From an uncultured Gammaproteobacteria bacterium (GTDB taxonomy: Bacteria; Pseudomonadota; Gammaproteobacteria; Steroidobacterales; Rariloculaceae), in assembly GCA_963817615.1 (NCBI GenBank), contig CAWFPH010000003.1:1904856-1968855 (forward strand): a stretch of 64,000 nucleotides of DNA, given 5' to 3'. The position numbers and the translations under genes are program-made. Shown in pieces: positions 23,817 through 62,900 of this stretch; position 1 is the first letter of the stretch; each line of letters begins with the position of its first letter. The notes under the pieces are model-generated. The model was not told the origin of the DNA and ran no database searches. It saw only the letters and a program-made list of their open reading frames with translations.

Positions 23817-23855
23817 CCGGTTAGCTCGTTCAGAATGCCGAAGAGCCTTCTAGAA

Positions 23856-25508: not shown

Positions 25509-25730
25509 CTACTTCTTCTTCCAAACGTAAAACGTCGCTTCGCTGATCCCCATCGTCCGACAAACGTCACCCACCGGTGTGCCGCTCTCGGCCTGCTTCA
25601 GGGCGTACAAAATCTTCTCTTCCGAGTACCTCGATCGCTTCATTGCTCTAGCTCCTTGATGCGCTGCCAAGGGCCGAAGCGAGCAATCTACTCCAGGTCT
25701 AAACGACTACGAAAAATCGGGACCACGTCA
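25509..25730 (-). mobile_element. Remnant of a second IS3-family element: terminal repeat (TGACGTGGTCCCGATTTTTCG...) plus the 5' part of orfA
   Basis: orfA' (25643 down to 25509) reads MKRSRYSEEKILYALKQAESGTPVGDVCRTMGISEATFYVWKKK*. The TAG sits where the family motif WKKKYGGL has Tyr, and GGL follows in frame. Downstream sequence is degenerate. Confidence 0.6.
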
Positions 25731-25775
25731 GAATTTTGCCATCAAGTGCTGTCGCGGGGAGAGATTGCCGGGGTT

Positions 25776-26636
25776 CTACCCCGTTTCCACGGACGGTTGA
25801 GTTAAGGCTGAAAACTTCCGATCTTGCCGGGCCACTCTACGACGCATTCGCGGGTTGTGGAACCGCTCGAGGTAATCAAACAGGTCCGCGCGCGCCTCAT
25901 CGCGCGTCCGGTACTGACGATGGTGCACACGTTCCCGCTTGAGCATTCCGAAAAAGCCCTCGCAAGCCGCATTGTCGGCGCAGTGGCCGACCGCGCTCAT
26001 GCTGCAGACCAACGCGTTGCCACCCAGGAACTTCTGGTAGGTGCCGCTGATGAACTGACCGCCGCGATCCGAGTGCAGGATGACCTCCGAGCTGCCCGCC
26101 CGTTGCCACACAGCCATCTGCACCGCGCGCACGACCATGTGTCGATCCTGCCGGTGATGCATCGACCAGCCCGCCACGAGCTTGCTGAACAGATCGAGCA
26201 CGATGCACAGATACAGCTTGCCTTCGAGCGTCAGGATCTCCGTGATGTCGGTGACCCACTTGGTCTCCGGTTCGTTGGCACTGAAGTCTCGTTCGAGCAG
26301 GTTCTTGACCCCGACAGGTCGAACCCCTGCCTTGCCGCCGAAGCGGCGCTTGCGCCGCCGCGGCCAGCCCTGCAGGCCGGCACCCGCCATCAGGCGGGCC
26401 ACCCGGTTGAGGCTGACGCGCTCGCCCTCGTCGGCGAGGTCCTCGTGCATGCGGGGTGCGCCGATCACTCCGAGGCTGTCTTCATGGATCTCTCGGATGC
26501 GCTCCAGCAAGCGCGCATTGGCTTGCGCGCGCGGCCCAGGCGTGCGGCACGCCCACGCATAGAAGCCGCTCGTCGAGACTTCCAAGCAGCGGCACATCAT
26601 CCCCACGGGATACTCGCTGCGGCAGTGTTCAATCAC
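25776..26636 (-). CDS. IS3-family transposase orfB (rve/DDE integrase core)
   Basis: 286 aa: ...[12 protein letters not shown]...[12 protein letters not shown]...[10 protein letters not shown]...[17 protein letters not shown]. The frame continues upstream into orfA through the slippery site. Confidence 0.85.
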
Positions 26637-26936
26637 CGCGTACCGCTCGGTGACTGCTTCGCGAAGTACGCTGCCGCGTCTCTTAAAAAATCCCGTTCCT
26701 TGGTGACCTTCGAGAGCTCGCGCTTGAGGCGGGCCATCTCCTCATCGCGCGGCGTGCCGCCGCCCGGGAAGGCTTGTGCCTCCGGCCTCGGCTTCACGGA
26801 CCCAACGGGTCAACAGGTTCGGGTTGACCCCGACCTCCAGGGCGATCTGCCGGCAGCTCGACTGCGACCGCCGAACCAGCTCGACGATCTCTCGCTTGTA
26901 CTCAGGGCTGTAACGCTTGCGCTTCGACATGGACAC
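26633..26936 (-). pseudogene. IS3-family transposase orfA (HTH), internally frameshifted near 26775
   Basis: The N-terminal part MSMSKRKRYSPEYKREIVELVRRSQSSCRQIALEVGVNPNLLTRWVREAEAGG is in one frame. The C-terminal part [30 protein letters not shown]...* is in another. Confidence 0.65.
26684..26690 (-). promoter_or_regulatory. Candidate programmed -1 ribosomal frameshift heptamer T TTT TTA linking orfA and orfB
   Basis: The minus strand reads GAT TTT TTA AGA. Slipping -1 there continues as [26 protein letters not shown], which is the orfB frame. Confidence 0.6.
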
Positions 26937-26994
26937 TCCTCTGGCTCAGTATGAGCCTTAGTGAAAGTGTCCGCAGAATCGGGGTAGAACCCTG

Positions 26995-27230
26995 GGCGGC
27001 CACGCAGCTCGACGAGCTGATCGAGTGCACGCACGATGCGCCGAGCCGGTAGATTCGCGTCGATCTCGATCCGCAGGACATCGCGGTCGAAGTCTCCATC
27101 AGACGTTCGAACGCGCGAAACTGTCGACCCGACCACAAGGCATCGGCCATGAAGTCAGCCGACCAGACCTCGTTCGGTCGAGCCGGAGTCACCAAGGGCG
27201 CATTCACCTGCGACCGGGTTCTGCACAAAT
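26995..27230 (-). pseudogene. IS3-family orfB fragment cut by the IS at 25769-26994
   Basis: Fragments PARPNEVWSADFMADALWSGRQFRAF and DGDFDRDVLRIEIDANLPARRIVRALDQLVELRGRP lie in two frames. The second runs straight into the IS terminal repeat. Confidence 0.55.
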
Positions 27231-27341
27231 GTATCCGGCCTGTAAAAAATCCGACAGCTCCCGTCGTCGCCGCCCCGCAGCGCTCGCGACATTAGCTTTC
27301 TTCATCGCAACGCAAATGCCTCTTGCAGGCAGAGAATAATT

Positions 27342-28085
27342 TTGCCACTCTTCGGTATAACCCCTCTACGATCATATGGCAGAGAGATCTGTCTTATGCA
27401 AGGGACAAGTGCATCTTCGTCCATATTCCAAAGTGCGCGAGGCTCTAGCTTTGAGGTGGTCCTCGGACACGAGGGACTACCTGACCATACGACGATACGC
27501 ATGTTGGAGGCGCCGATACCGATCCTGAAATCGGTGGCGGCACCCGATAACCTCAAGCAGTTTGTATTGAGATGTCGGCAGCACGTCCTTGGACACGTCA
27601 AGCATCAAAGAGGACCTGCGCTAAGTCGCGGTCAATATGAGGACTACTTCAAATTCTACGATTATCCGGAATCCATGGAGTAGAGCGTTCTCCTGGTAAA
27701 GAACTGTATGCGTAGCCCCGCACATCGGCAACACTATGGCTTAGCGCCTAACATGACACTTGCTCAGTTTTTAGGCGATGGAGTGGGCGAGAAGCCTTGA
27801 GACCACAGACGGAGTGGTTAAAGAACTACTCTGGCACAATTCCTATGGACTAGATTGGCCGGTTCGAATCATTACCGGCCGACTTTCGCGCAATCAAACG
27901 TCGTCTCAATCTCTCGGCTTCCACGTTACCTCATGCGTTCAAAGGCAGCGGAGGATTACCGCACCTACTTCGATCCTACTTCGATCGAGTTAGTGCGCCG
28001 CGTATACGCCGAAGAAATCAAACTCTTTGGCTATTCGTTTGATGGGACCTATTACAAGGAGACCGCGAGCGCGGCGACGCCCTGA
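27342..28085 (+). pseudogene. Sulfotransferase-family protein, multiply frameshifted
   Basis: Pieces in different frames: ARGSSFEVVLG (the family has PKxxGSSF here), STIIRNPWSRAFSW (family motif RNPWDR..S.Y), and DYRTYFDPTSIELVRRVYAEEIKLFGYSF (typical C terminus). Confidence 0.5.
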
Positions 28086-28149
28086 TTTCAACCCTCAGCG
28101 GTCCAACCGACAAAAGGCTGGGTAGCCCCGCGGCGCTCTCTGAGACGTA

Positions 28150-28454
28150 TTCCGCGTCTATAACGGAGAAGACGGCTCGCGAATTCGTCGACTGGGCAAA
28201 AGGCAGGCATGATGATCGAATACATCGAGCCCTGCGAGCCGAATCAGAAAGCCTATATCGAGCGGTTCAATCGAACGTATCGCGACGAAGTCCTAGACCT
28301 TCAGCTGTTCGAGACACTCGAGCAGGTCCGGGAAATCACGCATCGGTGGCTGATCGATTACAACGAGCATCGGCCGCACGACTCGCTTGGCGATTTGCCG
28401 CCAAGCGAGTATGCAAAAACCGCCGGAAGTTCTAGTTCTCAACCGCCCGCTTGA
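28150..28454 (+). pseudogene. IS3-family orfB C-terminal fragment (opposite orientation to the other remnants)
   Basis: TEKTAREFVDWAKGR is followed, after a frame change, by MMIEYIEPCEPNQKAYIERFNRTYRDEVLDLQLFETLEQVREITHRWLIDYNEHRPHDSLGDLPPSEYA. A further scrap, RRRHSALGYMSP, lies at about 28470-28530. Confidence 0.6.
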
Positions 28455-28614
28455 CGGGGAGCTACGCGACAACCCGCGTCGTCGACACTCGGCACTCGGA
28501 TATATGAGCCCGCGGAATACGAATGGACCGCAGGGTGTCACGGGAAACGGGGCAAGCGCAACGCACGGTCGTATCGACCCACTATTGAGTTCAGGACGAG
28601 TTCGGAACGGCCGC

Positions 28615-29893
28615 TCACTTGCGGTTCCTTGCTAGCCACGCTAGCTTCGTCATTGCGCCAATGTATGACCACACGTATGGCAAGGGCGAATAGAGCACCA
28701 CGAAGGAAATCGACACCAGTAGCGCAATCAACGCATATAGGAACGCAATCAGGTAAGAGCGACTGACTGGATCAGCGTTCGGCAAAGTACGCGCAACCGC
28801 GCGATAGACGCTAACGAAAAGCCAGAGAAACACGGACAGCCCGATTGCGCCGGTGTTGTACAGCAGCAGCAAGTAATGGTTGTGGGGATCCGTATAGATC
28901 CCACTGTAAAAAACATATTCCATCCGACGCCCGTTACGAAGCTGTATGGCTTACTCAGCATGTCGATCAAAGTCGCCTGCCACACAACGGTTCGGCCTGC
29001 GCTTGCAGTGCTGAGCGTCTGGGCTCCTTGCGTCTCGCTCATTCGAGACAAAAACATGTCTGGGTTCGAGAGGAATGCAACAGCTGCAATCGATCCGAAA
29101 AGCAGCACCGCGCAACACCAACCCTCAGAACGGTGCGAGATCCAAATAGTCGCCTCAAGAGGGCCGTCGCTATCACGGCTCCTAACGTCAAACCTACCAG
29201 CGCCCCACGTGAGCCGGTCTCGAGAACCAGCATCATCGAGGCAAGAACACCCACCATCACAATTAAAGACCTTGGGCGAAGGAAAAGCAGCGGACTTACT
29301 GCGAGGAAAAGAATACGAGAAACGCAGCGAACTGGTTGCTCTCTCCTACGGCACCAGCGAGACGGCCACCTTCGATGGTTTCTGTCAGACCCATGTCGGG
29401 CAGCTTCAAGAAATCCATCAATAAGACAATGCTCAAAAGCGAAATTACGATCGCGATGCGTTTAACTAGCCATAGCACATCTCCAGTGCTCCGCAGACCA
29501 AAGAAGAAGACACAGAAAAACAACAGCGGGTCCACGAGCTGCGTTTTAAGGCTAAGAAGGTTTATCAGACCATCGTAGTTGCTATGTACGCTCGTCGAGA
29601 TTGCCCATGAAGCCAGCCCGTAAATGCATAGGAGCCACGAATACCACAAGGAAGCGGGGAAACCGCGTACCCAAAAGCGTGCCGCGCGCCACAGCGACGC
29701 AAGAAAGGTAGCCGACCATAAGATAAAGAACGATGTTCTTAAAGCTCAGTCCTGGAAGGACCGAGAGGCCGATCTGAAAAACGTCGTCCGCGAGCAGGAC
29801 CGCGAACAGTCCGAGGAGCGCAAGATTACGACCAAGGCTGGATACGCCAGCACCAGGTCTACGCAACGAACCTAACTGCACGAGACTTTGCAT
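28615..29893 (-). pseudogene. O-antigen ligase/polymerase-like (Wzy_C) membrane protein, at least 4 frameshifts
   Basis: Five overlapping hydrophobic ORF fragments in different frames: 29582..29893, 29296..29649, 29039..29260, 28749..29108 and 28615..28923. The last contains HNHYLLLLYNTGAIGL, the Wzy_C-type motif. Confidence 0.6.
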
Positions 29894-30143
29894 TGAGATG
29901 CGTTCGAGGAAACGACCAAATTTCCGAAGTGTACGCTTGTTTTGTCAGTTCCCCGTGCACGGTTGACGGAATAGAGACAATCTGAACTGAGATCAGGGCA
30001 CTCCCGCCCTGACACTACCGGCCGGACAGGTGAATCTCGCTAGAAAGCCAAGGGCGAACTGCACCACCAGCTGCTCTGGATGCCGGACCGGTCGAACCTA
30101 TGCCGCTCTCGCCATCGTCGCCGCGCAGATCTGCTGAAGAGTC

Positions 30144-30975
30144 CTATGCGGGACGGACTCCCACGATCTGGATGGTGAAGATCAAATTTGCGATCGGTCG
30201 TCGCATGCGCCAACGCTTCGGCGCTAAAGCACAAAGGCGCTCGATGAGGATCATCAACCAAGCCGGCACCTCGATGTAGCGACCACGGCCGCCGATGAGA
30301 CTTCGCACGGAGCGAAACCCAGCCGCAGCAAACAAGCCTGCAAGTTCACGAAATGTGTACTCTCGGAGGTGAAACCCCGTCGCGTAAGTCGTCAAAGCCT
30401 GCTGAAATATCGTGGGGACCGCAAAGTGCATTTGGCGTGATGCACAGATATCGTCCGCCAGGCGCAAGGGCAGCGTAGACGTTCTCTAGTTGGGCTCTAG
30501 CATCGTCCGGATGTAGATGCTCCATGAGCTGGTTGGAGAACGCCAGTGTTGCGCCGGCGACCGGGATGCTGGTCCCGTCGGAAAGCACCAGCTGGCAATT
30601 GGCTGGCAGCACCCGTCGCGTTATTTCTGATGAAACATCGACGGCATACACGTGTTGAACTCGCGCTGCGACCGCAGCGGAGAGCGCACAATCGCCAGGA
30701 CCAATCTCGAGGAAGATAGAGCTTGGATTCAGATATCGACCGACAATCGCCAATAGCTGATCGACGTAGCGGCGCGTCTCATCCGGCGACGCCTTTCGTG
30801 TCAGCTGCGGATGGTCGGGTATCTGCGAGAACAGCTCATCGTAGAGCTCCCGATACAACCGGCCTCTTTCGGTCAATGGGGCGCTGCGCAACTTGGCGGC
30901 GAGAGCGCGCTCGATGTCGTAGTGCCGCCTTACGGCGGACGCTTCTCGGGCTGGATGCAATTTGTCCATCTCCAT
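30144..30975 (-). pseudogene. Class I SAM-dependent methyltransferase with one frameshift near 30440
   Basis: ORF 30346..30990 (FLEIGPGDCALS...LAPGGRYLCITPN) continues in ORF 30144..30467 (...ATGFHLREYTFRELAGLFAAAGF...) in another frame. Confidence 0.6.
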
Positions 30976-31407
30976 GGCGCACACTGCCAACGAATTACCC
31001 GCAAATCACCTAGTGGGCCGTCGGCCAACCTGCCCATACAACTGCGGCGAGCAGAACGTTATGTCATGCGCGGCCGCCCCCGACCACCGGATTCTGGCAA
31101 CCAAACCAAGCTAGTACAAGCGCTGGTCGGGAGCCTTGCCCAAACCAGCGCCGCCTTCTCGGGGAGGCGAACTGCCTGGAAGCGGCGCACCCGTGACTCG
31201 TCAATCGTGACCGCGGTCATTTCCACCCTTCACCCAGATGTTAAATTAGCCTTCCTCCGATCGCGGGCGCCTCTCCTGACGGGTTATAGACTTACCGCTA
31301 CTTACGACGAAGCTGCGATAACCCTATACTCTAATGACACTATGGCTATGCTGAGGAACGGCGTGCCTAAAGGGACACCAATCCATCGCGTTCGTGATGG
31401 ACGCTCG

Positions 31408-32014
31408 ATGTTTCGTGCCGCGTTAAGCGTCCTTTGGTTCTCGCTCAATTGGGCCGCGACGCCTTGGGCGGCCGAAGCTCAACAGAGCGCCCCGGCGCCC
31501 GCCGACGACGCGACCTATACGATACAGCCAGGCGACGTGCTCGAGGTATCCGTCTGGAAGGAAACAGACCTCCAGAAGGACGTAATTGTCCGCCCGGACG
31601 GCGCATTCGCGTTTCCGCTTGGCTGGCGAGATACAGGCACGCGGCAAGACCGTCGAACAGGTCCGCAGCGAGATCACGCAACGACTCGTCCGCTACGTTC
31701 CGGACCTCGTTGTCACCGTGATGGTCAAGGAGATCGTCGGCAACCGAATCTACGTCATCGGCCAGGTCAACAAACCGGGCAGCTACGTCGTCAATCCAAG
31801 CGTCGACATCGTCCAAGCACTGAGCTTGGCCGGCGGCACGACCCCCTTCGCTTCGCTCGATTCGATCAAGATCATCCGCCGAGACGGCGCGAAAGCAGAT
31901 CTGCGATTCCGTTCAACTACGGCGACGTCTCAAAGGGACGAAATCTCGATCAAAACGTCATGCTGAAGACCAGGCGACGTTTTGCTGAGTCCCGTGATGC
32001 GTCGCTCACAGTAA
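31408..32014 (+). pseudogene. Polysaccharide export protein Wza/EpsE-like (PEP-CTERM-locus type), 3 frameshifts
   Basis: Signal-like start MFRAALSVLWFSL..., then YTIQPGDVLEVSVWKETDLQKDVIVRPDGAFAFPL in frame 1. AGEIQARGKTVEQVRSEITQRL...VKEIVGNRIYVIGQVNKPGSY...LSLAGGTTPFAS...IKIIRRDG is in frame 2. IPFNYGDVSKGRNLDQNVMLK returns to frame 1, then PGDVLL is in a third frame. The first shift is an extra t at about 31619. Confidence 0.7.
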
Positions 32015-32061
32015 TATCGTCGCTTGTCGCGCGACGGCACGCTCATACAAGAGGACAATAC

Positions 32062-33780
32062 ATGGACGACACCGCAGGCGTTTCGATAGAGGACTACCTG
32101 ACGATTTTTCGTCGGCGACGCTTTGCGATGGCGTGGGTTGCTCTCGGCGTGCTGACTCTCGCCGTGGTCGTAACGACGTTCATGCCGGAGCGTTATCGTT
32201 CCGCGGCCACGATCCTGATCGAGGATCCCGAAGTCCGCGGCGAATACGTTCGGACGACCGTCCAGATCGCAAGCACCGACTTGCGCATCGACCGCATGCG
32301 TGACCGCGTCGTCAAACGGGAAAACCTGGAACCCATCATCGAGGAATTCTCGCTCTATCCGGACGAGGACCCGGAGGACAGGCCCGGTCTCCTGCGCAGC
32401 AACATCGACATCCAGAAGATCATCAACAGTAACGATCCGCGAGCGCAGCTGACCGGTCTTGGAGATACCGTGGGCTTCCAGGTCATTTTCACGGCGGATA
32501 CGCCGGAGGCCGCACAAGGGAGTGGCGAATCGCCTGGCCGAGCTGTTCGTCACGGAAAACACGAAGAGCCGCACCGAATCGGTGACGCAGACCTCGAGCT
32601 TTCTCGAGCAGCGAGGCCGACGCTCTCAAGACTCAACTGACCAAGACCGAGCAAGCGCTGGCCGAGTTCAAGAAAGCAGAACGCGGGCAGCCTGCCGAGC
32701 GATAAGGACCTCAATTTGCAGATGCTCGACCGGAACCAGCGCGATCTCGACTCAGTGGACCGAGAGATTCGAACGCTGCAGGAGCGCAAAAATCTGCTCA
32801 CTGCCCAAATCGCGAACACACCGTCATCGGCAACGGTTTACTCCGACAAGGGCGAGCCCATCCTCGGCACCGATCAGCGCCTCGAAGCGTTACGCCGCGA
32901 ATACGTGTCGATGGCTGCCCGCTACAGCCCGGAACACCCCGATCTCGTGAGGCTGCGACGCGAGATTGCGCTGTTGAGCGACGGCAATGCTACGCCTGCC
33001 GGCTACGGATGTGATCCAAAAGGAGATCGACGAGAAGCGAGCTGCAACTGAAGACGCTGCGGCAGCGCTACGGAGACGATCACCCCGATATCAAGCGATT
33101 GGAGCGGACGATCGACGGGCTATTGGAGGAGCTCAAAACCGCCCCGATGGAGACCAAAGCCAAGAGCCAAGGGCAGCGCAGCAACCCGACAATCCGGCCT
33201 ATATCGAGCTCCAAGTCCAGATCTCCGGTGCCGACAGCGAGCTTGCCGCGCTTCGCACCCAACGCGACGAGTTTCGCGACCGCATAACGGACTACGAAAA
33301 GCTGATCGCGCGTGCGCCCGAAACCGAAAAGCAACTGCTCGCGCTCACGCGCGACTACGAGATTGCGCGGCACGATTATGACGAGACTCGGCAAAAGCAA
33401 GCAGAAGCTCAACGAGCCGTGGTGATCGAGGACCAGCAACGAGCGGAGCGGTACGTGATGCAGAGAGCCGCTGGCTTGCCGAGCGGCCCGGCCCAACCGA
33501 CTCACCTTACGTTGCTGGCCATAGGCTTATTCTTGAGCATCACCGCAGCGCTTGGGCAGTGGGCATATTGCGAGAAGCGATCGACATCACTGTCACGGGG
33601 CGCGCGCGACCTCCGCACGATGCTCTCGACGCCGCCGATCGCGGTGATCCCGATGATCGAGAACACGACGCGACACCAGACGGCGCGTTCTGCGGCGCGC
33701 CGCGCTGGCAGTCTCTTTCGCCGCAGTGGCGGTGTTCGGCGTCGTGGTGCTTGCTTGTAAGCGCGCGAGCAGAACCATAA
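32062..33780 (+). pseudogene. Chain-length determinant (Wzz-type, PEP-CTERM-locus subfamily-like), about 9 frame changes
   Basis: ATG 32062 follows AGAGGA. IEDYLTIFRRRRFAMAWVALGVLTLAVVVTTFMPERYRSAATILIEDP is the family N terminus. Later coiled-coil pieces (VANRLAELFVTENTK, EADALKTQLTKTEQALAEFKK, LQMLDRNQRDLDSVDREIRTLQERK, QRYGDDHPDIKRLERTIDGL, PAYIELQVQISGADSELAALRTQRDEF) alternate between all three frames. Confidence 0.7.
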
Positions 33781-48580: not shown

Positions 48581-49852
48581 CTCGCCCTCGGAGAATCGCC
48601 TTGCGTAACCCGTTGCCGCCTCGAGTCAAGCGCCGAATCCACAACACCACGCCCTACTACTACCTCACCGCACTGCAGACCAGCCTGCGTTCCGCGTCGG
48701 CTCTCGATCGCAGATTCGTCTCGCTCAAGCCGGACGGCGGCAGCGCCGGTCGAGTTCTGCTGTCGTACATCAACGACCCGTTTTTTCTGAAGCCGGGCGA
48801 GCCCGTTCCGATCGGCCATACGCATTTCTGGGAATCGCGAGAGATCGCCAACACGTTCCTCGAGCTCGGCTACGAGGTCGACGTGATTCGCTATTCCAAC
48901 CGCAGCTTCGTGCCCCAAAAGGACTATTCGCTGCTGATCGATTCGCGCTTCAATCTCGAACGACTGTCGGGGCTGCTGAATTCCGATTGCCTGCGAATCA
49001 TGCACGCCGACGCGGCCCACTGCCTGTTCCACAACGCCGCCGAGGCTCGCCGCTTGCTCGAGCTGCAACAGCGCCGAGGCGTCACACTCCGACCGCAGCG
49101 CGTCATGGCGCACAATCTCGGCATCGAGCACGCCCATTGCCTGACCATACTGGGCAACCGCTTCACGATCGATACGTACGGCTACGCCGACAAGCCGACG
49201 TACCGCGTACCCGTCTCCACCCCCGTGCTCTACCCCTGGCCCCGCGACAAGGACTTCGACCGCGTGCGGAAGAGCTACATGTGGTTCGGCAGCGGCGGCT
49301 TCGTTCACAAGGGGCTCGATCTCGTGCTGGAAGCGTTCGCCGGAATGCCCGACTACCACCTGACGATCTGCGGCCCGATCGCAAACCCGCTCGAACGCGA
49401 CTTCGTCGATGCGTTTCGCAAGGAGCTGTACGAGACGCCGAACATTCACACCGTGGGCTGGACCGACATCAGCTCGCCGGAATTCGTGCGCCTAGCCAAT
49501 GGCTGCGCCGGCTTGGTGTATCCGTCCTGCTCGGAGGGCGGCGGCGCCAGCGTCCTCTCGTGCATGCACGCGGGCATGATTCCGCTCGTGAGCTACGAGT
49601 CGAGCGTCGACATCGAGCCCGCGTACGGGGCCGTGCTCGAAAACTGCTCCGTCGACACGATCCGCAGCTCCGTCAGAGCCGTCTCCGAGCTGCTCGTCCG
49701 ACACGCTCACACACATGGCACGCGCGTCTTGGGAATTCGCGCGCGCGAGCCATACAAAGGAGCGTTTCGCGGCCGAGTACAGAAAAGTCGCGAACGAGCT
49801 GGTTGCGGCGCGCGACAGGCTACGCGCGGCGCCGCAGGTCCGAACACCCTAG
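48544..49852 (+). pseudogene. GT-B fold glycosyltransferase with one frameshift near 49690
   Basis: ...SYMWFGSGGFVHKGLDLVLEAF...VYPSCSEGGGASVLSCMHAGMIPLVS... lies in frame 1. The native-looking tail SSDTLTHMARASWEFARASHTKERFAAEYRKVANELV...* is in frame 2, ending at 49852. The start is uncertain (TTG 48544 or GTG 48553). Confidence 0.6.
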
Positions 49853-51154
49853 CTTCGCTCGAGCAGCAACCCGGCGGCCACGAGCTCGTCCGCGGCGGAT
49901 CTGATCGAAGCGAACGGCAGGCCGGAACGCGCCGCAATGTCGAGCAGCGAATGCTCGCCGTCCGACTGATTCAGCACCCATAGGATCGCCCACTCGCGGT
50001 CGGGCAGCCGCTTGCCCCCGGTCAGACGATAGAGTCCGCGCTTTCCGAGCTGCGGCTCGCACTTCGGAGACTGGTTGACGTAGACGCCGTCGTGGTCGAG
50101 CACGTCGAAAATGGCACGAACCGCCTGATACGAATCGGCCAGCGATTCGCGCGTGACGAAATCGAGGTCGTCTGCCGAGCTGTGATACTCCGGATATTCG
50201 CCGTTCGGCGTGCGGGTCAGGCGTCCCATCGGGAGGTCGAAGCCCGGCGAGCAGAACTGCCGTTCGTCGTAGCCGTATGGCGAGAAGGAATCACCTTCGA
50301 CCGCGCACTGCGCGACTGCAGGACGTGCGCGGCGGCGCGGTCGATAGCGGCGGTTTCCCGACGACTCCGCTTGTAGTGAGCGGCCCCCGGTCGCCGAGCA
50401 ACGCAAGCACCAATCCGTGATCGACCCGACTCACGTTTTGCTCGTTGATGCTGAGCCAGCAGATCGAGCCGATCGTGCCCGGACCCCATACGAACCGGTA
50501 GCTGTGCTTCCTTTTTTCGGCCGCCACGGAAGCGGCCAAATAGGCGCTGACGGCGAGGCCGCTCAGGTTGTCGTTGCAAAGCGATGGATGACACAGGTGA
50601 GAAAAGATCAGGATCTCGCGTTCGCTCTCGCCCGGCACGAAAAACTCGCCGTACGACAGCGAGCCGGGCTCGAGCGTCGAATCGATGACGACCTCGTAGT
50701 CGCCCTCGCGCAGCGTCTCCAAGACGCGGTGCGGCAGGCAGAACCCCCAATCCTCGCGGTAGTACGACGTGCGATAGGGAATCCAGTCCGGGTGCTCGGG
50801 CAGCGAGAACAAATGCGGGCGAAGCTCGGCCAGGCCGAGCTTCGCCCGCACCGGCACGCTATAGCTCATCACATGCAGGTTGTGGTCGGCGAAGTCCACG
50901 ATCTTGCGGCCGTCCGGCCCGCGCAGATACGCGCCGCGTATGTTCCATTCCTTCGGCACGACCCAGTCGAACACGGGCGTGCCGCTCGGGACCTCGTGGA
51001 CCTCGAGCGGGACGAGCTGCGCGAGCGCGCCCAGAGTCTCTCTGGCTCCCGCGCCGGTGATGCTCCGGCAGATCGGATAAAGATCCGCCACGAGGCGATA
51101 GAGCCGCTCGCCGATGCCCTCCGCACCTGCCGGGTCCTGCGAAACGGCGCTCAT
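49849..51154 (-). pseudogene. DUF4910-type (M28 aminopeptidase-like plus winged-helix) protein, 2 frameshifts
   Basis: ORF 50291..51154 (LYPICRSITGAG...FSHLCHPSLCNDNLSG...) is followed by LTYKRSRRETAAIDRAAAHVLQS in a second frame. ORF 49849..50406 (DSFSPYGYDERQFCSPGFDLPMG...YPEYHSSADDLDFV...) is in a third. Confidence 0.65.
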
Positions 51155-55502: not shown

Positions 55503-56488
55503 CTGCGCCGGATACCGCGACACTCTTGGACTCGACCAACCTTGGAACGATAGCCGGTCGTAGGGTGCTCGTAACGGGCGCTTCGGGATTCTTGGGCACG
55601 CACCTTTGCAAACGACTGGCGACAGCGGGCGCCGAGGTGCAAGCCGTGTCACGCGGCGCCCACGTTGCGGACTCAACCAACGTGCGGTGGTGGCAAGCGG
55701 ACACCGCTGATCTCGACTCGGCGAAAAAGCTACTGAACGAGACGCAGCCGCACACGGTCTTTCACCTTGCCGGCCTAGTCACCGCGCGGCCGGAGATCGA
55801 TCTCGTACTGCCGTCGGTCCATAGCTTGTTCCTCAGCACCGTGAACCTATTGACGGTCGCCGCGGGCTTGAACGGCTGCCGCGTGATCCTGATTGCCTCC
55901 CTCAACGAGCCGCCACCCTCGGCCGAGGAGCCCGTTCCCAGCTCCCCGTATTCCGCGGCCAAGTTCGCCGCGAGCACATACGGTCGGATGTTTCACCGCC
56001 TATACGGCACGCCGGTAGTCGCGGTGCGTCTCTTCATGACGTACGGACCGCATCAGGACGCGCAAAAACTGGTGCCGCACGTCGCGCTATCGCTGCTGCG
56101 CGGCGGCAGCCCGAAGCTCTCGAGCGGTCTGTGGCAAGCCGACTGGATCTACATCGACGATGCGATAGAAGGGATGATCAGCACGGCACTCGCTCCGGAT
56201 ATCGAAGGCTCGACTATCGATATCGGCTCCGGTCGGCTCATCGCAGTGCGAGATCTCGTAGAATCCATCGCCGAGCTCGTCGGCGGAATCGGCAAACCCG
56301 TGTTCGGTGCGTTGCCGGATCGACCCGTTGAGCCGCCGGCCCGCGTCGCCGACATCGAGTCTACGTACCGCAAGCTCGGTTGGCGGCCGCGAACCGAGCT
56401 GCGGGAAGGCTTGGCGGCCACCATCGAATGGTTCCGGCGGACGCTCGGAGGGACTCGCGAAGCTCCGAGCACGCTCCTCCGGCCCTAG
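55499..56488 (+). CDS. NAD-dependent epimerase/dehydratase (extended SDR)
   Basis: 329 aa with RVLVTGASGFLGTHL and a YSAAK catalytic motif. Confidence 0.85.
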   Translation: MTAPDTATLLDSTNLGTIAGRRVLVTGASGFLGTHLCKRLATAGAEVQAVSRGAHVADSTNVRWWQADTADLDSAKKLLNETQPHTVFHLAGLVTARPEIDLVLPSVHSLFLSTVNLLTVAAGLNGCRVILIASLNEPPPSAEEPVPSSPYSAAKFAASTYGRMFHRLYGTPVVAVRLFMTYGPHQDAQKLVPHVALSLLRGGSPKLSSGLWQADWIYIDDAIEGMISTALAPDIEGSTIDIGSGRLIAVRDLVESIAELVGGIGKPVFGALPDRPVEPPARVADIESTYRKLGWRPRTELREGLAATIEWFRRTLGGTREAPSTLLRP

Positions 56489-56550
56489 TGGCGGAAATTC
56501 TTAGGTCGTCCGCGGACCGCCAGCGGTGGTTCTCGGCAAAGGAAAGTCCC

Positions 56551-57792
56551 ATGCAAAAAGCAGTTGTAGCTAGGTTTGGAACAAGCGTCGCTTGCGCGCT
56601 GGTCGCATTGCTCGCCGACAGCGGCGCACGTGCTGCATGGGATACGGTGCCCACGTTCGGCGTGAGCGTAGAGCCGGATGACAATCCTCGGCTGGAGTCC
56701 GATGCGCTAAAGAAGTCGGACGTTCGGACCCTATTGGACGCGGGAGTGTCAGCCACCGCTTACAACCAGCGCGGGGAAATTCGCCTCCAACCCCGCGTCC
56801 AGGCCCAGCAGTACGGCAACGCCTCCAACAGCGATCTCGAAAACACCGACGTCTACTTTTCATCGCGCGGCCGTTACACGTGGTTGAAGGCGGAAGGCAA
56901 TTTCTATCTCGATTCGTCGCGCCAGAGCATTCTGACCGGCGAGCTCGCAAACGCCGAGCCGCTCGACCCGGACGCGCCTGGTCTTCCGAGCTTGAGTACC
57001 GGGCAGCTCGTGTTTCTGAACCAAAACGTGACGAGGACCGTGCTGCAGCCGACCCTCGACGTGCGCCTCGGCGATGTGACCGATCTCGTCTTCGACACGC
57101 AGTATTCCACGGCCTCCTATTCCGGTCCGACCGTCATCACGCGGTCGAATTTCACGAACAGGAATCTCTCCTTCGGCGTGCAACGCCGGCTCAGCCCGCA
57201 GAATCGCGTGCTCGCGCGGCTCTATGCGGCCGACTACCAGGCCGACGTGACCGACAACACGACGCGCACGAATGGCCTCGCGGGCACATTCTCGCGGCAG
57301 CTGAACCAGACTCTCACGCTCGGACTCGACATCGGAGTGGCACGAAGCGATTTCAATTTTCTATCCGGCGCAGGCAGGGTCGACAGCTCCGACACGAGCT
57401 TCACTGCGCACGTCAGTCTCCGCCAGAGAGCCGCGAGAACGACGTTGAACTTCGACATCGGCCGTCAAGTCGATCCGAACGGATCGGGCTTCGTCGTAAG
57501 CCGCGATTCGGTTCTGTTGTCGCTATCCCGGACGTTCAAGCCACGTTTGATCGGCAACACCGGCGTGAGGATCGATCGAACGCGTGCGGTCGGGAACGTG
57601 CTCACGACCTCCGCCAATCGCGATTACGTCCGCCTGGAGCTCGGCCTCGAGTGGGCCTGGACCCAACGCCTATCGCTGAACACCGGCTACAGCTTCACGT
57701 CGCAGAAGTTCGTCGACACGGCCGATCAGCGGGTCGCGTCGAACTCTATCTACTTCGGTATCGGCTACTCGGCCCTGTCCCGGCGCCGCTAG
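56551..57792 (+). CDS. Outer-membrane beta-barrel protein, EpsL-like (PEP-CTERM-system-associated barrel by recollection)
   Basis: ATG 56551 follows AAAGGAAAG. The signal peptide is MQKAVVARFGTSVACALVALLADSGARA. An alternating beta-strand pattern runs throughout, with an aromatic-rich C-terminal strand (SIYFGIGYS). Confidence 0.55.
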   Translation: MQKAVVARFGTSVACALVALLADSGARAAWDTVPTFGVSVEPDDNPRLESDALKKSDVRTLLDAGVSATAYNQRGEIRLQPRVQAQQYGNASNSDLENTDVYFSSRGRYTWLKAEGNFYLDSSRQSILTGELANAEPLDPDAPGLPSLSTGQLVFLNQNVTRTVLQPTLDVRLGDVTDLVFDTQYSTASYSGPTVITRSNFTNRNLSFGVQRRLSPQNRVLARLYAADYQADVTDNTTRTNGLAGTFSRQLNQTLTLGLDIGVARSDFNFLSGAGRVDSSDTSFTAHVSLRQRAARTTLNFDIGRQVDPNGSGFVVSRDSVLLSLSRTFKPRLIGNTGVRIDRTRAVGNVLTTSANRDYVRLELGLEWAWTQRLSLNTGYSFTSQKFVDTADQRVASNSIYFGIGYSALSRRR

Positions 57793-57807: not shown

Positions 57808-58221
57808 TCAATCGGGCTCTGTCTCGCCTACGATCAGCAGCTGCGGCAGATCGCCTCCCGCGGCCGGGGGCGTTTTCCGCAACAGCAACCGCGTATGCGC
57901 GACGTTGGCCTTGTCGAACTTGATCGCGACGTCGACCATCACGTCGGTGTCGCCGGCCGCTTCGATCTTCTCGATCTCGAACTGTGCCCCGCCGTAGGTT
58001 TGCTGCAAAAAGGCGGGGTACGTCGGGTTCGACAGAAGCGCGGACCGATTGGCGAGCAGCTGTCCGCCCAGCAGTGAGCGGATGGCATCGGTGTTCCCCT
58101 GCGAGAGGGAATCGAAGTAGCGGTTCATCACCGCCGTAGTCTCTTGAGTTTCCACTTGGGCGACGACCGACTGCGAGAGAGCCAGCGTCGCTGCAAGAAA
58201 TATCGAAACGAGGGTCTTCAT
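57808..58221 (-). CDS. Small secreted protein, NTF2/SnoaL-like by sequence pattern
   Basis: 137 aa with signal peptide MKTLVSIFLAATLALSQSVVAQ. It starts 11 nt after the stop of the giant gene, so it is probably co-transcribed. Confidence 0.55.
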   Translation of the reverse strand: MKTLVSIFLAATLALSQSVVAQVETQETTAVMNRYFDSLSQGNTDAIRSLLGGQLLANRSALLSNPTYPAFLQQTYGGAQFEIEKIEAAGDTDVMVDVAIKFDKANVAHTRLLLRKTPPAAGGDLPQLLIVGETEPD

Positions 58222-58232
58222 CTCGGTTCCCG

Positions 58233-61200
58233 TCAGTTGGCCACGACGATGGCGATATAGTTCGCGTCCGCACCGCTCGCACCGGCCGCCAGGTTGCCGC
58301 CGAGCGTAACCGAACCGGCGTTGTACGTGCGGCTGTAAAGACGCATGGAGGTTCCAGCGGGGTTCGTGGTGCCGACGCTGAGCCCGGTGTCCGTGAACGC
58401 GCTCATCCAGGTCGGACGGCTGGCCGCACCTGCATCGTATGCAACGTAGACGGTAACCGGTCGATCGACGCTGAACGTCAGATAGTTGCTGCTCGTGTTG
58501 CCCACATCTGCGTTCGCCGTCATGATCCAGCGCCCGTTGGCAAGCACGCTCGGAATGCTCGTCAATCGATACGACCCGTCGACGTAGTAGAAGTCGTCAA
58601 GCTCCAACAGGTTCTGCTTGAGATATGGAGCCACCGTCGAACGCGACAGATTGTCGAGCACGAACGGCAACGCAGCGGGAGCCGACGGATTGAGCGCGTT
58701 GTGCCAGAGCGTCGCCAACACCACGTGGCCCAGACCGTTCGGATGGAGCGTATCGCTGAACAGACTGAAACGATTGACGGTCGAGCTCAGGAAATAGCTG
58801 AACAGATCGGGGCCGACCTGGCGCCCGGTGAGCTCGTAGCGAATCACGTCGTTGTACGGTTGAATGTAGCTCACGTTCCGCCAGGAGTTGAGCGGATCCG
58901 TGAAGATCGTCGAACCGGAGCCGAACGCCGGCGGCACGAGCGCTACATATACCGTCTTGCCGGCGCTCGTCAGCGAGTTGATCACCGTTTGGACGTTGCC
59001 TTTGTACGTGCCGTTGCACGCCGTACCGGAGCAGCCGCTGCCGCTCGGGATCCCGCGGTTCGAATCGTTCGTGCCGATCAAGAGCAACACCTTCTGACTC
59101 GCCGGATGGCGCGCCTTGATGGAGTTGAGGCGGCTGAACGCGGTCTGGGAGGAATCGTCGCCGCCGATGCCCTCGTTGAAGACCATGACCTGCTTGCCCA
59201 GGGAATTCTCGAGCAGATTGGTGAGCGGCGCCTCCATCCCCTCGTCGGCGACGATGCGGCCGTTCAGCGACTGGTCGTCGGTCCCGAAATTGTCGCCGAT
59301 GCCGTTCGTGATGCTGTCCCCGACCGCCACGAAGTATTCGCCAGTCGTGCCGACAGCGGTGTTGGTATCGCGCGCGATCTCGACGTTGGAAGAGTTGCGC
59401 AGGCTCGCTACGACCGTATGGTTGCCCGGCGTAACCGACGAGTACGTCGCCGTGTAGGGCTCGGTCGTGTCGGTTATCGAATTCGTGCCGTCCAGAGTGA
59501 AGACGACTTTGCCGCCGGTGGGCACTTGCGTGGCAATGGCCGAGACGGAAAGCAAGTTGGTCACTTGCGTGGAGTACGACGTCGGCGTCGAGAGCGTGAT
59601 GGACGGAGACGACCCAACCGCCTGAATCAACACGTTGTCGAAGGTCGACCGATCCTGACAATACAACGCCACCGTGCCCGTGCTTAGAGCGGAGTCCTGC
59701 ACCGCGAACAACGGCACGCCGTTACGCAGCACCTGGATCTTGTTGCCCTGAACATCGATCGTGATGTGCTCCGTTTGCCCGACGACGTAGCCCCTGCCGT
59801 CGACCGCCAACGGCGTGAACACGCCGGCGACCTTCTTCTCCAGGCGGCTGAATCCGTAGCGGGCGTTCATCGTGAACCGGTAGTAGTTGTTCGGATCCAC
59901 GTAGCGGAACATGACCCCCAGATCGTCGGAGAGGTCGTCCGGCCCATCGCTCGAGAGGAACGTCGCATCGACGCTGAAGCGGTAGTCCGTGAGCGTCGAG
60001 CCGGCACTGAGGTACGCAAACGTACCGAGATGGTAAGTCTGATCGAACGTTTGCAAGCTCTCCACGCGGTTGTTCTCGAGGAACTGCCCTGCAGAAACCA
60101 GCCAAGACGGCGAAAGGTTCGATTCGTTGACGACCGCCCACCCCACCGAGTTGCCATCGTCGAAGTTGTCAGTGAACGGCAGTGTGAGGACTGCCGCGTT
60201 CCCCGCCAGAGCCACCGCCTGCAAGCCGATGTTGCCGCCGTAGTCGGTCACGATGGTATGCCGGATCGTCAGCGTCTGATTCGCCGATGCGGCCGAGTAG
60301 GTCAACGTGATGACGCGGGCATAGACGTTCCCTGACGAATCGCCGATCGTCGTGGTGTACGAGCTCGCGCTCCCGTCGCTCAACGTCGCCTGCACTTGGC
60401 TCTGCGACATCCAGCCACCGAGGTAAATCTTCACGGTCCGCGGCGTCGTATCGGCAGGCACGGTCAACTGGTAACCATGGCCGACGCCCGTGAAGTAGAC
60501 CAGCGACTGAGTACCGGCACTGCTCACGGTCGGAGTGCCGTCGGACCAGCTGTGGACGGTCCACGCCGTGTCGCCTTGGTAGCCGTTCGCACTGGTGCCG
60601 ATCGCAGTAAAGTTGCTGATCTGCTGCGCCACACCGGCTTTGTGATTGAACGTTCCGGCAGTGGGACCCCAATGGGCCCAATCGGCCGTTCCGACGGCGG
60701 TCAGGTTGACGGACGCCGGCGCTGTCGTGACGGAACCGCTCAAGGTCGCGCCGGACGAAGAGGACAGCACGGTGATCGAAACGCTCTGGGCGTCCGTCGC
60801 ATTCGCGGCGTCGCGCGCCGTAAACGTCACCGAGTACGGACTTCCGGCCGCCGCACCTGCTGGCGGCGTCCAGGTGAACGTGCCGCTACCGCCGCTCGCG
60901 GTGAAGCCGGCGCCGGCCGGAAGCGACGATGCCGTGATTTGCAGCGTGTCACCGACATCCGGGTCGGACGCCGTCACGCCGAAATTCAGTGTTTGACCCT
61001 CCGTCACCGACTGATTGCCCGGCGTCGTCAGAACAGGCGGATCGTTGACGGGATTCACCGTGAGCGTGACGGTCGCAGGCGTGGAGGCAGCGACCCCGTC
61101 GTTGGTCTTGAAGGAGAAGCTATCCGGGCCGTTGTAGTTCGCGGCTGGCGTGTACGTGACATGCGCGGTGCAGTTGCTCGGCGTTCCCGTGCACGAAATC

Positions 61201-62555
61201 GAGTTGATCGCGCCGAGCGCGCCGTGGGACGGTGCAGTGACGATCGCGAACGTCAGCGCATTGCCGTCGGCATCCGAACCCGCCAGCGTGAGCGGCAGCG
61301 CAACGTCTTCGTTCGTGCTCGACGACTGCGCGGCCGCCGTCGGAGGAGTATTGCCGGCTACCGATCCGGCCTGCAACGTCGCGGCTTGTAAACCGATGTT
61401 GCCGCCGTAGTCGGTCACGATCGTGTGCCGAATCGTGAGGGTGCGTCCGGCGGAGGCGGCGGCGTAGGTGAGAGTGATGACCCGTATGTACGCGTTCCCC
61501 GACGAGTCGCCGATTGTCGTCGTGAACGGGGTGGCGCTGCCGTCGCTCAGCGTTGCCTGCACTTGGCCTTGCGTCATCCAGCCGCCGACGTAGATTCGAA
61601 CCGTCCGCTGTGTGGTATCGGCTGGGAGCGTCAGCTGGTAGCCGTGACCGAGACCCGTGAAATAGATCAGTGACTGAGTACCGCCGTTGCCGGCGGTCGG
61701 CGTGCCGTCCGTCCAGCTGTGGAACGTCCACACCGAATCCCCTTGATAACCGATCGCGCTGGCGCCGATCGCCGTGATGTTGCTGATCTGCTGGGCGACG
61801 CTCGCTTTGCGGTCGAAGCTGCTCGACGTCGGTCCCCAATGTGCCCAATCGGCTGTGCCTTCCGCCGTCAGATTCACCGAGGACGGCGAAGTGCCGACCG
61901 CACCGGAGAGCGTGCCGGAACCCGACGAAGAGCCCCCTTGGAGAGTCACGGCTTGCAAGCCGATGTTACCGCCGTAGTCGTTGACGATCGTTTGCTTAAT
62001 CGTCAGCGTTTGACCGGTAGCCGCGGCGGCGTAGGTCAGCGTGACCATGTTCGCATAGGCGTTGCCCGACGAATTCCCGATCGTCGCGGTGAATGCCGTT
62101 GCGCTACCGTCGCTCAGCGTCGCTTGCACCAGGCTCTGAGTCATCCATCCGCCGAGATAGATGCGCACGGTCCGCTGCGTCGTGTCGGCAGGGACGGTCA
62201 GCTGATAACCGTGGCCGACTCCCGTGAAGTAAACGAGCGCCTGAGTGCCCCCGTTGCTCGCCGTCGGCGTACCGTCCGACCAGCTGTGAAACGTCCAGAC
62301 AGAATCGCCCTGATACCCGATCGCGCTCGCGCCGATCGTCGTGATGTTGCTGATCTGCTGTGAAACGCCGGACTTGCGGTCGAAACTGCTCGCGGTCGGC
62401 CCCCAATGGGCCCAGTCCGCCGTTCCCTCGGCGGTCAGGTTCACCGAAGTAGGCGCGGTCGCGACCGTGCCGGTGAGCTGCGCGCCCGAGGCGACACCCA
62501 CGTAAAGGAACAGCAGAGGGACCAACGACCGTAGAATCTTGCCAGCAAGCTTCAT
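58233..62555 (-). CDS. Giant secreted mosaic protein: 3 copies of an unassigned ~189-aa module, cadherin-like and Ig-like domains, LamG/ConA-like domain, SGNH/GDSL hydrolase and C-terminal beta-sandwich
   Basis: Uninterrupted ORF. ATG 62555 gives the signal peptide MKLAGKILRSLVPLLFLYVGVASGA; GTG 62603 is the ORF-track start. The SGNH blocks are VAVGDSITNG, FNEGIGGDDS, LLIGTNDS and SDTLHPN. There is no PEP-CTERM, LPXTG or autotransporter end. Confidence 0.85.
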   Translation of the reverse strand: MKLAGKILRSLVPLLFLYVGVASGAQLTGTVATAPTSVNLTAEGTADWAHWGPTASSFDRKSGVSQQISNITTIGASAIGYQGDSVWTFHSWSDGTPTASNGGTQALVYFTGVGHGYQLTVPADTTQRTVRIYLGGWMTQSLVQATLSDGSATAFTATIGNSSGNAYANMVTLTYAAAATGQTLTIKQTIVNDYGGNIGLQAVTLQGGSSSGSGTLSGAVGTSPSSVNLTAEGTADWAHWGPTSSSFDRKASVAQQISNITAIGASAIGYQGDSVWTFHSWTDGTPTAGNGGTQSLIYFTGLGHGYQLTLPADTTQRTVRIYVGGWMTQGQVQATLSDGSATPFTTTIGDSSGNAYIRVITLTYAAASAGRTLTIRHTIVTDYGGNIGLQAATLQAGSVAGNTPPTAAAQSSSTNEDVALPLTLAGSDADGNALTFAIVTAPSHGALGAINSISCTGTPSNCTAHVTYTPAANYNGPDSFSFKTNDGVAASTPATVTLTVNPVNDPPVLTTPGNQSVTEGQTLNFGVTASDPDVGDTLQITASSLPAGAGFTASGGSGTFTWTPPAGAAAGSPYSVTFTARDAANATDAQSVSITVLSSSSGATLSGSVTTAPASVNLTAVGTADWAHWGPTAGTFNHKAGVAQQISNFTAIGTSANGYQGDTAWTVHSWSDGTPTVSSAGTQSLVYFTGVGHGYQLTVPADTTPRTVKIYLGGWMSQSQVQATLSDGSASSYTTTIGDSSGNVYARVITLTYSAASANQTLTIRHTIVTDYGGNIGLQAVALAGNAAVLTLPFTDNFDDGNSVGWAVVNESNLSPSWLVSAGQFLENNRVESLQTFDQTYHLGTFAYLSAGSTLTDYRFSVDATFLSSDGPDDLSDDLGVMFRYVDPNNYYRFTMNARYGFSRLEKKVAGVFTPLAVDGRGYVVGQTEHITIDVQGNKIQVLRNGVPLFAVQDSALSTGTVALYCQDRSTFDNVLIQAVGSSPSITLSTPTSYSTQVTNLLSVSAIATQVPTGGKVVFTLDGTNSITDTTEPYTATYSSVTPGNHTVVASLRNSSNVEIARDTNTAVGTTGEYFVAVGDSITNGIGDNFGTDDQSLNGRIVADEGMEAPLTNLLENSLGKQVMVFNEGIGGDDSSQTAFSRLNSIKARHPASQKVLLLIGTNDSNRGIPSGSGCSGTACNGTYKGNVQTVINSLTSAGKTVYVALVPPAFGSGSTIFTDPLNSWRNVSYIQPYNDVIRYELTGRQVGPDLFSYFLSSTVNRFSLFSDTLHPNGLGHVVLATLWHNALNPSAPAALPFVLDNLSRSTVAPYLKQNLLELDDFYYVDGSYRLTSIPSVLANGRWIMTANADVGNTSSNYLTFSVDRPVTVYVAYDAGAASRPTWMSAFTDTGLSVGTTNPAGTSMRLYSRTYNAGSVTLGGNLAAGASGADANYIAIVVAN
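60204..60743 (-). repeat. WAHWGP module copy 3 (aa ~621-800), separated from copy 2 by the cadherin-like and Ig-like domains
   Basis: LSGSVTTAPASVNLTAVGTADWAHWGP...HGYQLTVPADTTPRTVKIYLGGWMSQ...DYGGNIGLQAVALAG. Confidence 0.8.
61371..61910 (-). repeat. WAHWGP module copy 2 (aa ~232-411), directly tandem to copy 1 with a 189-aa period
   Basis: LSGAVGTSPSSVNLTAEGTADWAHWGP...HGYQLTLPADTTQRTVRIYVGGWMTQ...DYGGNIGLQAATLQ. Confidence 0.8.
61938..62477 (-). repeat. WAHWGP module copy 1 (aa ~43-222 of the GTG-numbered ORF)
   Basis: LTGTVATAPTSVNLTAEGTADWAHWGP...HGYQLTVPADTTQRTVRIYLGGWMTQ...DYGGNIGLQAVTLQ. Confidence 0.8.
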
Positions 62556-62900
62556 GGCGGGGTTCGACTCACTCCTTGACCGCGTATTCGCCGGGAGGCG
62601 CACCTACAAACCTGCAGCATCCGCCGCAGAGCTCAAAGAACCTTGAGCCTGCAGTCTGACACATGCAAAACGATTCCTTAACAGCCGCCTCGGAGGCGCG
62701 TAAGAAATACCGACACTCCCGATGCCGCGACAGCGACTGTAGCGACCGTTTAGCGAACTTTGTGGTGCGAATGCATCGACTGGCACCGTGGCGCCAATCG
62801 ACGCTCGAGCGCACTTTTGAGAAGCCGTCCTGTGGCGCAAACGCCGGTAGTCCTTACAATTGATCTAATTTTTTTTCATTTGATCGGAGCGGATTGGCCA

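Follow-up and report, generated by a model that had tools for sequence, protein, structure and literature searches.

The protein encoded at 58233..62603 on the minus strand of a 64,000-nucleotide (nt; 64-kb) stretch of DNA from an uncultured Gammaproteobacteria bacterium (contig CAWFPH010000003.1; the whole stretch is called the window below) contains three copies of a module of ~182 amino acids (aa), named here the WAHWGP module after a motif common to the copies. Our analysis places this module in a large, new and uncurated family, although its fold class and role class are already known. The host, a multidomain protein of 1456 aa delimited by the open reading frame (ORF) list, its Pfam architecture and an orthologue (P0068), also carries an SGNH/GDSL hydrolase domain and is encoded within a polysaccharide locus. 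We consider it somewhat more probable than the opposite that the module is a non-catalytic, multivalent unit that holds a secreted SGNH enzyme on a surface polymer, most likely the polysaccharide made by its own locus.

Three anciently diverged copies in one protein

A hidden Markov model (HMM) of the module, built from its relatives, places exactly three copies in the host protein, all on the minus strand: copy 1 at aa 42-223 (61935..62480; domain E 1.8e-65, with an ungapped alignment to the other copies), copy 2 at aa 231-412 (61368..61913; domain E 6.4e-69) and copy 3 at aa 620-801 (60201..60746; domain E 1.1e-66). Together they span nt 60201-62480, in close agreement with an earlier, sequence-only reading that had put three copies at 60204-62477, and a six-frame scan with the module HMM across the whole window reveals no fourth. 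The WAHWGP motif itself lies at aa 64, 253 and 642, and the codon for its first Trp starts at nt 62414, 61847 and 60680; the proposed distance of 189 aa (567 nt) from Trp to Trp between copies 1 and 2 is thereby confirmed. A DNA repeat finder also recovers all three, whose starts lie 567 and 1167 nt apart. Copies 1 and 2 are linked by a 7-residue Gly/Ser linker, the three align without gaps, and all the motifs previously quoted as common to them are present in the alignment.

In the ungapped alignment the copies share 72-79% of their residues and 73-75% of their nucleotides. The 25-27% of nucleotides at which they differ are mostly synonymous, and the reading frame is unbroken throughout. By the Nei-Gojobori method, synonymous divergence (dS) between copies is 1.07-1.27 and nonsynonymous divergence (dN) is 0.11-0.15, giving dN/dS ratios of 0.09-0.14. 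The three copies have diverged anciently and each is under purifying selection: synonymous sites near saturation, together with low dN/dS, identify them as old, selected copies and exclude an assembly duplication, as had been argued from the sequence alone.

Alternate-frame ORFs are present at 62104-62406, 61120-61848 and 60169-60681, and had been described as starting at one shared point in each copy. The correspondence is exact in copies 2 and 3, where the TTG start comes from the conserved Asp-Trp codons GAT-TGG, and approximate in copy 1, where the TTG lies 9 nt downstream (His-Trp, CAT-TGG) because this copy writes Asp as GAC. We reject these ORFs as overlapping genes and regard them as shadows, in other frames, of the conserved codons of a high-GC sequence.

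A large module family absent from Pfam and NCBIfam

When the whole host protein is searched against Pfam-A (2025) and NCBIfam (2026) at E<=1, no credible match falls on aa 42-412 or 620-801; the sole library model that overlaps the modules is NCBIfam FliD (aa 115-194), at 20.2 bits against a cutoff of 500 bits. The three modules and seven relatives, searched against the same two libraries at E<=10, yield no match that reaches its threshold, and none of the 116 family members scanned has a curated family covering the module. No relative is found among PDB sequences, either by phmmer with one module or with a module-only profile. Within the carbohydrate-binding modules (CBMs), Pfam CBM_6 (PF03422) and CBM_35 (PF16990) do not match the module, and the module alignment, compared by hhalign with an authentic CBM6/35 domain from a Thiogranum metagenome-assembled genome (MAG; L002), scores a probability of 0.2%. 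The sequence-only reading could not place the module in a named CBM family; that verdict holds against Pfam, NCBIfam and the PDB, and no established CBM or DUF family in Pfam-A or NCBIfam matches the module at curated cutoff. A literature search for the motifs DWAHWG, WAHWG and LSDGSA returned nothing relevant.

Two candidate relationships were discarded. A 40-sequence profile that included flanking columns matched Cyt1Aa (E 7e-5 over 88 positions), and this match was rejected because it vanished with the module-only profile (alignment A3); Cyt toxins have an alpha/beta fold, unlike the predicted all-beta module. The family member P0021, searched against the PDB, matched only antibody light chains (E>0.04), which we attribute to chance.

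The family is large. While a word-indexed search collected 43 metagenome proteins with the module, mostly fragmentary, an exhaustive HMMER search puts the number of clusters (50% identity) at a minimum of 1,812 for E<=1e-30 and at 4,617 for E<=1e-3. The profile used for the HMMER search carried about 110 flanking, partly PKD-like, positions, and the 1,812 clusters are therefore the safe lower figure for family size. Among 194 sequences of the family, copy number ranges from 1 to 10 per protein, and the family as a whole occurs mostly in metagenome-derived sequences. The source annotations of its proteins read 'hypothetical', 'Ig-like', 'fn3 domain-containing', 'PKD repeat' or 'RHS repeat-associated', and never name the module itself.

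Across 185 clusters at <=55% identity, the family signature reads vnLT.eGt.DW.HWG ... K.gv..qIs ... sW.dGtPt ... G.G.Gf..tvPAdt..rtL..YvG and continues with A.LSDgSa ... vyt..y.Aas.gQtLtv ... gnv.l.aA.L. The pattern that defines the family is NLTxEGTxDWxHWG ... SWxDGTPT ... GxGxGFxxTVPADTxxRTLxxYVG ... AxLSDGSA ... AASxGQTLTV ... GNVxLQAAxL. Five polar residues (D22, K36, S123, D124 and S126) are conserved in 86-97% of the 185 diverse modules.

With respect to taxonomy, a scan of GTDB species genomes matched MAGs only. Acidobacteriota are dominant, and further matches fall in Chloroflexota, Planctomycetota, Verrucomicrobiota, Bacteroidota, Armatimonadota, Myxococcota and Desulfobacterota; the Gammaproteobacteria are represented by two sulfur oxidisers (Thiohalobacter and Thiogranum), whose modules are the closest to those of the window in the genome-collection scan (56-58%). 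This list is a biased sample, since the GTDB scan used the single pattern [EV]GTADWAH from alignment A3.

A predicted jelly-roll fold

The AlphaFold2 model of copy 2, built on a 40-sequence alignment, has a pLDDT of 97.1 and a pTM of 0.92; it is all beta, and three long strand pairs lie at its C-terminal end. Its Foldseek neighbours in the PDB are jelly-roll ligand-binding domains (E 3e-4 to 3e-3, TMq 0.31-0.47) that include the CBM6 of arabinoxylanase 5la1, CBM61, CBM6, CBM35, CBM16 and CBM4, the accessory domains of EngBF and CITase, a domain of the phage CBA120 tailspike, Cry toxins and the CBM-fold Stig cyclases. On the basis of this model, the module falls within a CBM-like jelly-roll fold class and outside every family tested. 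The sequence-only reading had suggested a beta-sandwich glycan-binding module. The model and its neighbours agree with an all-beta sandwich or jelly-roll; we infer the glycan binding itself, along with the ligand's identity and the direction in which the SGNH domain acts.

Members of CBM families 6, 35, 61, 4 and 16 (PDB 5la1, 1gmm, 1o8s, 2w87, 2xon and 2zey) resemble the module both in their all-beta jelly-roll sandwich and in being non-catalytic accessory modules of secreted multidomain proteins, often in multiple copies. They are among the best Foldseek matches (E 3e-4 to 2.5e-3), but with a TMq of 0.31-0.36. For CBM6 and CBM35 in particular (E 3e-4 to 2.4e-3), the agreement extends to the fold class and falls short of close similarity. 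In hhalign, the module hairpin LTVPADTTxRTLxVYVG lines up with the strand pair ITLTLNAGQNTIRV of the CBM6/35 domain. Unlike these CBMs, the module is larger (182 versus ~120-145 aa).

The highest TM-scores in the PDB (TMq up to 0.47) are to Bacillus thuringiensis Cry toxins (PDB 4w8j, 4moa, 1ciy and 8w7n). The region matched is one that we take to be Cry domain III, a jelly-roll receptor/glycan-binding domain. Identity, however, is 9-14% with no sequence relationship, and the context of the Cry domain is a pore-forming toxin. In BFVD, the matches are CBM-like domains that decorate phage tail, neck-passage and baseplate proteins (TMq 0.37-0.48). These host-surface glycan binders share the loose fold class of the module, but with TM-scores below 0.5 and no sequence similarity. 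There is no phage context around the host gene within the window.

Partner domains across the family

In 76 multi-copy members, the parts outside the module are mainly immunoglobulin-like (Ig-like), namely Big_7, Ig_3, I-set, PKD, fn3, Big_1, Big_9, He_PIG and TIG. Catalytic partners in the same set are Peptidase_M23 (9 members), GDSL (7), sulfatase (3), glucose/sorbosone dehydrogenase (GSDH; 2) and subtilase (S8; 1), and none is a glycoside hydrolase. Further contexts, namely DUF11, beta-propeller, GSDH with a type IX secretion system (T9SS) tail and FecR, come from nine genome-encoded members, again with no glycoside hydrolase catalytic domain, and some short members of the family end in PEP-CTERM or T9SS sorting signals. 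At the other extreme are giant members of 4385 and 6070 aa with 8-10 copies. Copy numbers from 1 to 10, interleaved Ig, PKD and fn3 domains, and sorting tails are the behaviour of extracellular binding modules. The partner profile, as read from domain architecture, fits an extracellular multivalent targeting or adhesion module and not a classical plant-glycan CBM. Also, a JGI metagenome protein of 3488 aa (P0057) has four N-terminal modules (aa 78-991) and a source annotation of RHS repeat-associated, an arrangement which suggests that the module can serve as the targeting head of polymorphic toxins.

The host protein, its orthologues and its locus

The host ORF opens at a GTG (62603), although the true start of the gene is likely the ATG at 62555 (MKLAGK...); an exact look-up of the protein in either form found no record. 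Translation from this internal ATG, read by eye, begins with a predicted Sec signal peptide, MKLAGKILRSLVPLLFLYVGVASG followed by A (62484..62555, minus strand), in which a basic start, a hydrophobic core and an A-S-G cleavage motif can be distinguished. Between copies 2 and 3 lie two cadherin-like/Big_9 Ig-like domains (aa 418-577; 60873..61352, minus strand), recognized by Pfam as Big_9 (6e-22), Cadherin_5 (4e-14) and Cadherin_4 (3e-13); the NCBIfam tandem-95 repeat model scores 60 bits there, below its 90-bit cutoff. Copy 3 is followed by a DUF1080/3-keto-disaccharide-hydrolase-like (LamG-like) domain (aa 810-993; 59625..60176, minus strand; Pfam PF06439, 28.3 versus a 26.8-bit cutoff).

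The catalytic domain (aa 1092-1297; 58713..59330, minus strand) can be assigned to the SGNH/GDSL hydrolase superfamily by Pfam cutoff and by its conserved blocks. Lipase_GDSL_2 matches at 1.2e-14 (55.7 versus 32.9 bits) and Lipase_GDSL at 1.6e-8 (35.4 versus 23.6 bits), and the four catalytic blocks I, II, III and V are intact (GDSIT at 1095, GIGGD at 1145, GTNDS at 1177 and DTLHPN at 1284). The C-terminal ~160 aa (aa 1298-1456, LPFVLDNL...YIAIVVAN; 58236..58712, minus strand) have no Pfam match and align with P0068 to about aa 1415; they are probably another uncharacterised domain.

P0068, a protein of 1449 aa from a metagenome contig (L033 10001-14350), is 56% identical to the host protein and matches it in architecture. 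Its locus resembles the host locus in gene content, encoding methyltransferases, DUF4910, an NTP-transferase, an epimerase, a dTDP-sugar isomerase and an ABC-2 permease, and additionally Acyl_transf_3 and a hexapeptide acetyltransferase. Two further orthologues share the core of the protein. In the Thiohalobacter MAG (L001) a complete protein has one module followed by the DUF1080-Ig-SGNH core, and adjoins an epimerase and a methyltransferase; in the Thiogranum MAG the ORF is cut at the contig start, with one module visible beside the DUF1080-Ig-SGNH core. The module beside the core, in the position of copy 3, is thus constant, and the copies N-terminal to it are additions. An apiosidase-like glycoside hydrolase is encoded ~1.5 kb downstream of the Thiogranum orthologue (L002 4001-6268, plus strand); its CBM6/35 domains supplied the comparator for hhalign.

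Identity between modules, 75-82% within the window protein and 98-99% within P0068 in this comparison, drops to 58-64% between the two proteins. Modules are thus more alike within a protein than are positional counterparts between orthologues, which points to separate duplications or gene conversion. The three modules of P0068 are 100% identical in DNA over ~557 nt, as opposed to the window copies with dS>1; gene conversion or duplication may have taken place very recently, or assembly may have affected the metagenome contig.

From about 21 kb to its end, the window is a polysaccharide locus. It encodes a WecA-type initiating transferase, several GT1/GT4 glycosyltransferases and a WecG/TagA enzyme, alongside methyltransferases and a Wzt-type ABC ATPase; epimerases, an NTP-transferase and a dTDP-sugar isomerase are also encoded there, as are the Poly_export/Wzz ORF and the probable outer-membrane barrel described below. 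From this gene content, the locus that holds the host gene is classed as an ABC-transporter-type polysaccharide locus.

What the module may do

In the reading that we prefer, the host protein would be exported by Sec, and its three modules, carried on flexible or Ig-like spacers, would bind a repetitive cell-surface polymer with multivalent avidity. This polymer would most likely be the polysaccharide made by the surrounding ABC-transporter-dependent locus, and binding would keep the SGNH domain on it while acyl (acetyl) groups are removed or transferred. The conserved position of the gene in polysaccharide loci, together with the intact SGNH domain, makes the locus polysaccharide the most economical ligand. 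The partners elsewhere in the family support this reading, since several of the M23, GDSL, sulfatase, S8 and RHS-annotated partners target polymers of the envelope or outside the cell.

A precedent for such an arrangement is AlgX of Pseudomonas aeruginosa, in which an SGNH-like domain is combined with a CBM at the C-terminus in an enzyme that acetylates alginate (PMC4148444). Both proteins join an SGNH-fold enzyme to a binding-type module and are encoded in a polysaccharide locus, and AlgX acts on the nascent polymer (PMC4148444). By analogy, the whole host protein may work like AlgX. The two differ in that AlgX has one C-terminal CBM, unrelated in sequence, whereas the host protein has three N-terminal modules, cadherin-like repeats and DUF1080; the AlgX locus, moreover, is synthase-type and the host locus ABC-transporter-type.

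Several observations weigh against tethering to a surface glycan. Secretion of the host protein is judged by eye, from the apparent signal peptide. The SGNH domain lacks a close solved relative, the best in a PDB search being sialate O-acetylesterase and lysophospholipase L1 at E 0.07. Every TM-score to the PDB is below 0.5, and no sequence or profile link joins the module to any CBM tested. The most strongly conserved residues (L15, W23, W26, I43, W67, L122, L159 and L180) could form a hydrophobic core. Finally, a glycoside hydrolase catalytic domain occurs in 0 of the 76 multi-copy members sampled, which is unusual for a classical CBM; a broader role in surface-polymer targeting fits this absence better than that of a CBM of the classical CAZyme type.

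A more general proposal is that the module founds a new CBM family that recognises a bacterial envelope glycan (O-antigen, exopolysaccharide or cell wall) and acts as a general address tag, docking secreted esterases, M23 peptidases, sulfatases and RHS toxins to the surfaces of bacteria. We regard this as possible but rather doubtful.

The ligand may instead be some other envelope polymer or a foreign one, such as peptidoglycan or the surface glycans of neighbours, in which case the module would direct secreted enzymes and toxins to cell surfaces in general. The commonest catalytic partner is the M23 peptidoglycan endopeptidase (9/76), the RHS-annotated P0057 and the subtilase and sulfatase partners would suit such a role, and the phyla in which the family occurs are many and differ greatly in their envelopes. 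Against this, the host-type gene lies among polysaccharide-synthesis genes in all three gammaproteobacterial-type orthologues with readable flanks, a neighbourhood that points to the cell's own product as the ligand for this subfamily. We consider a different polymer unlikely.

It is quite unlikely, in our estimate, that the module lacks glycan specificity and plays a structural or protein-binding part, as an adhesin or spacer domain comparable to the Ig-like repeats among which it is found. Most partners are indeed Ig, PKD, fn3 or cadherin-like domains, the 8-10-copy giants resemble adhesins or surface-layer components, glycoside hydrolases are missing among the 76 members, and many conserved positions are hydrophobic or Gly/Pro. 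The fold neighbours, however, are overwhelmingly ligand-binding jelly-rolls and not Ig folds, the conserved polar D22, K36, S123, D124 and S126 suggest a functional or Ca2+ site beyond packing, and the module is attached to enzymes that need targeting.

The Stig cyclases of the HpiC1 family raise the question of whether the module could itself be an enzyme on a CBM-like scaffold. These proteins (PF22825 HpiC1-like; PDB 5wpp, 5yvk, 5yvl, 6a99 and 6a9f) have a CBM-like fold of ~200 aa, near the size of the module, and give some of the longest Foldseek alignments, spanning nearly the whole module (170-200 columns, TMq 0.41-0.44); for the full-length fold comparison taken together, the values are 170-215 columns, TMq 0.37-0.44 and rmsd 7-12 A. 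HpiC1 shares the CBM fold and binds structural Ca2+ (10.1101/173674), and one family member, P0021, has a sub-threshold Pfam HpiC1-like match (E 0.0024, 18.4 versus a 27-bit cutoff). That match, however, is found in 1 of 40 members, lies below the gathering score and is absent from the window modules; the PDB profile search does not return HpiC1, and the TM-scores are below 0.5. The cyanobacterial Stig cyclases are dimeric enzymes that stand alone and depend on Ca2+ (10.1101/173674), whereas the module is a tandem unit of secreted multidomain proteins in many phyla, and its repetition in up to 10 tandem copies and fusion to other catalytic domains typify a binding module, not an enzyme. An enzymatic module is thus highly improbable. 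That the repeats are an artefact of assembly or sequencing, for which the identical modules of P0068 could be cited as a possible assembly problem in that contig, has a negligible probability, being refuted for the window by 25-27% nucleotide difference, dS>1, dN/dS of about 0.1 and an intact frame.

Other features of the polysaccharide locus

Directly downstream of the host gene is a 137-aa ORF (57808..58221, minus strand) with a signal-peptide-like N-terminus and no Pfam match. It is 43% identical (E 4e-19) to the ORF directly downstream of P0068 in L033, and this shared position and similarity suggest that it may be a functional partner of the host protein. Another ORF, of 470 aa (56380-57792, plus strand), has only a sub-threshold match to the Autotransporter beta-domain (23.8 versus a 26-bit cutoff); it is likely an outer-membrane beta-barrel of the polysaccharide locus.

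Elsewhere in the locus, a 609-aa ORF (30811-32640, plus strand) contains pieces of two families, Poly_export (aa 232-270) and, weakly, the Wzz chain-length determinant (aa 427-475), in an unusual, fusion-like arrangement. A DUF4910/DUF2172 aminopeptidase-like gene (49849-51154, minus strand) is split between two frames: ORF 50291-51154 corresponds to aa 1-260, and ORF 49849-50406 to aa 291-436, of a 439-aa homologue in L033, both at 57% identity. The split is a frameshift near 50.3-50.4 kb, due to a pseudogene or a sequencing error. The segment at 22000-30800, also inside the locus, has a GC content of 54-60%, versus 60-69% elsewhere, and few long ORFs, and may be variable or horizontally acquired.

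Implications

The gain is incremental, in that the module is a new family in a known fold class and not a new mechanism, and it merits a Pfam or CBM family proposal. With no representative in Pfam, NCBIfam or the PDB, the module leaves large surface proteins of little-studied bacteria from soil and sediment annotated only as 'Ig-like', 'fn3' or 'hypothetical'. Defining the family would directly improve annotation, since the domain is present in thousands of protein clusters. If the module does found a new CBM family, its specificity class would be distinct from that of the CBMs for plant or algal glycans, which dominate CAZy. Should the ligand be an envelope polymer, the module would represent a new means of targeting enzymes and toxins to the bacterial surfaces on which they act, and would provide a handle on how polysaccharide-modifying SGNH enzymes stay on their substrate.

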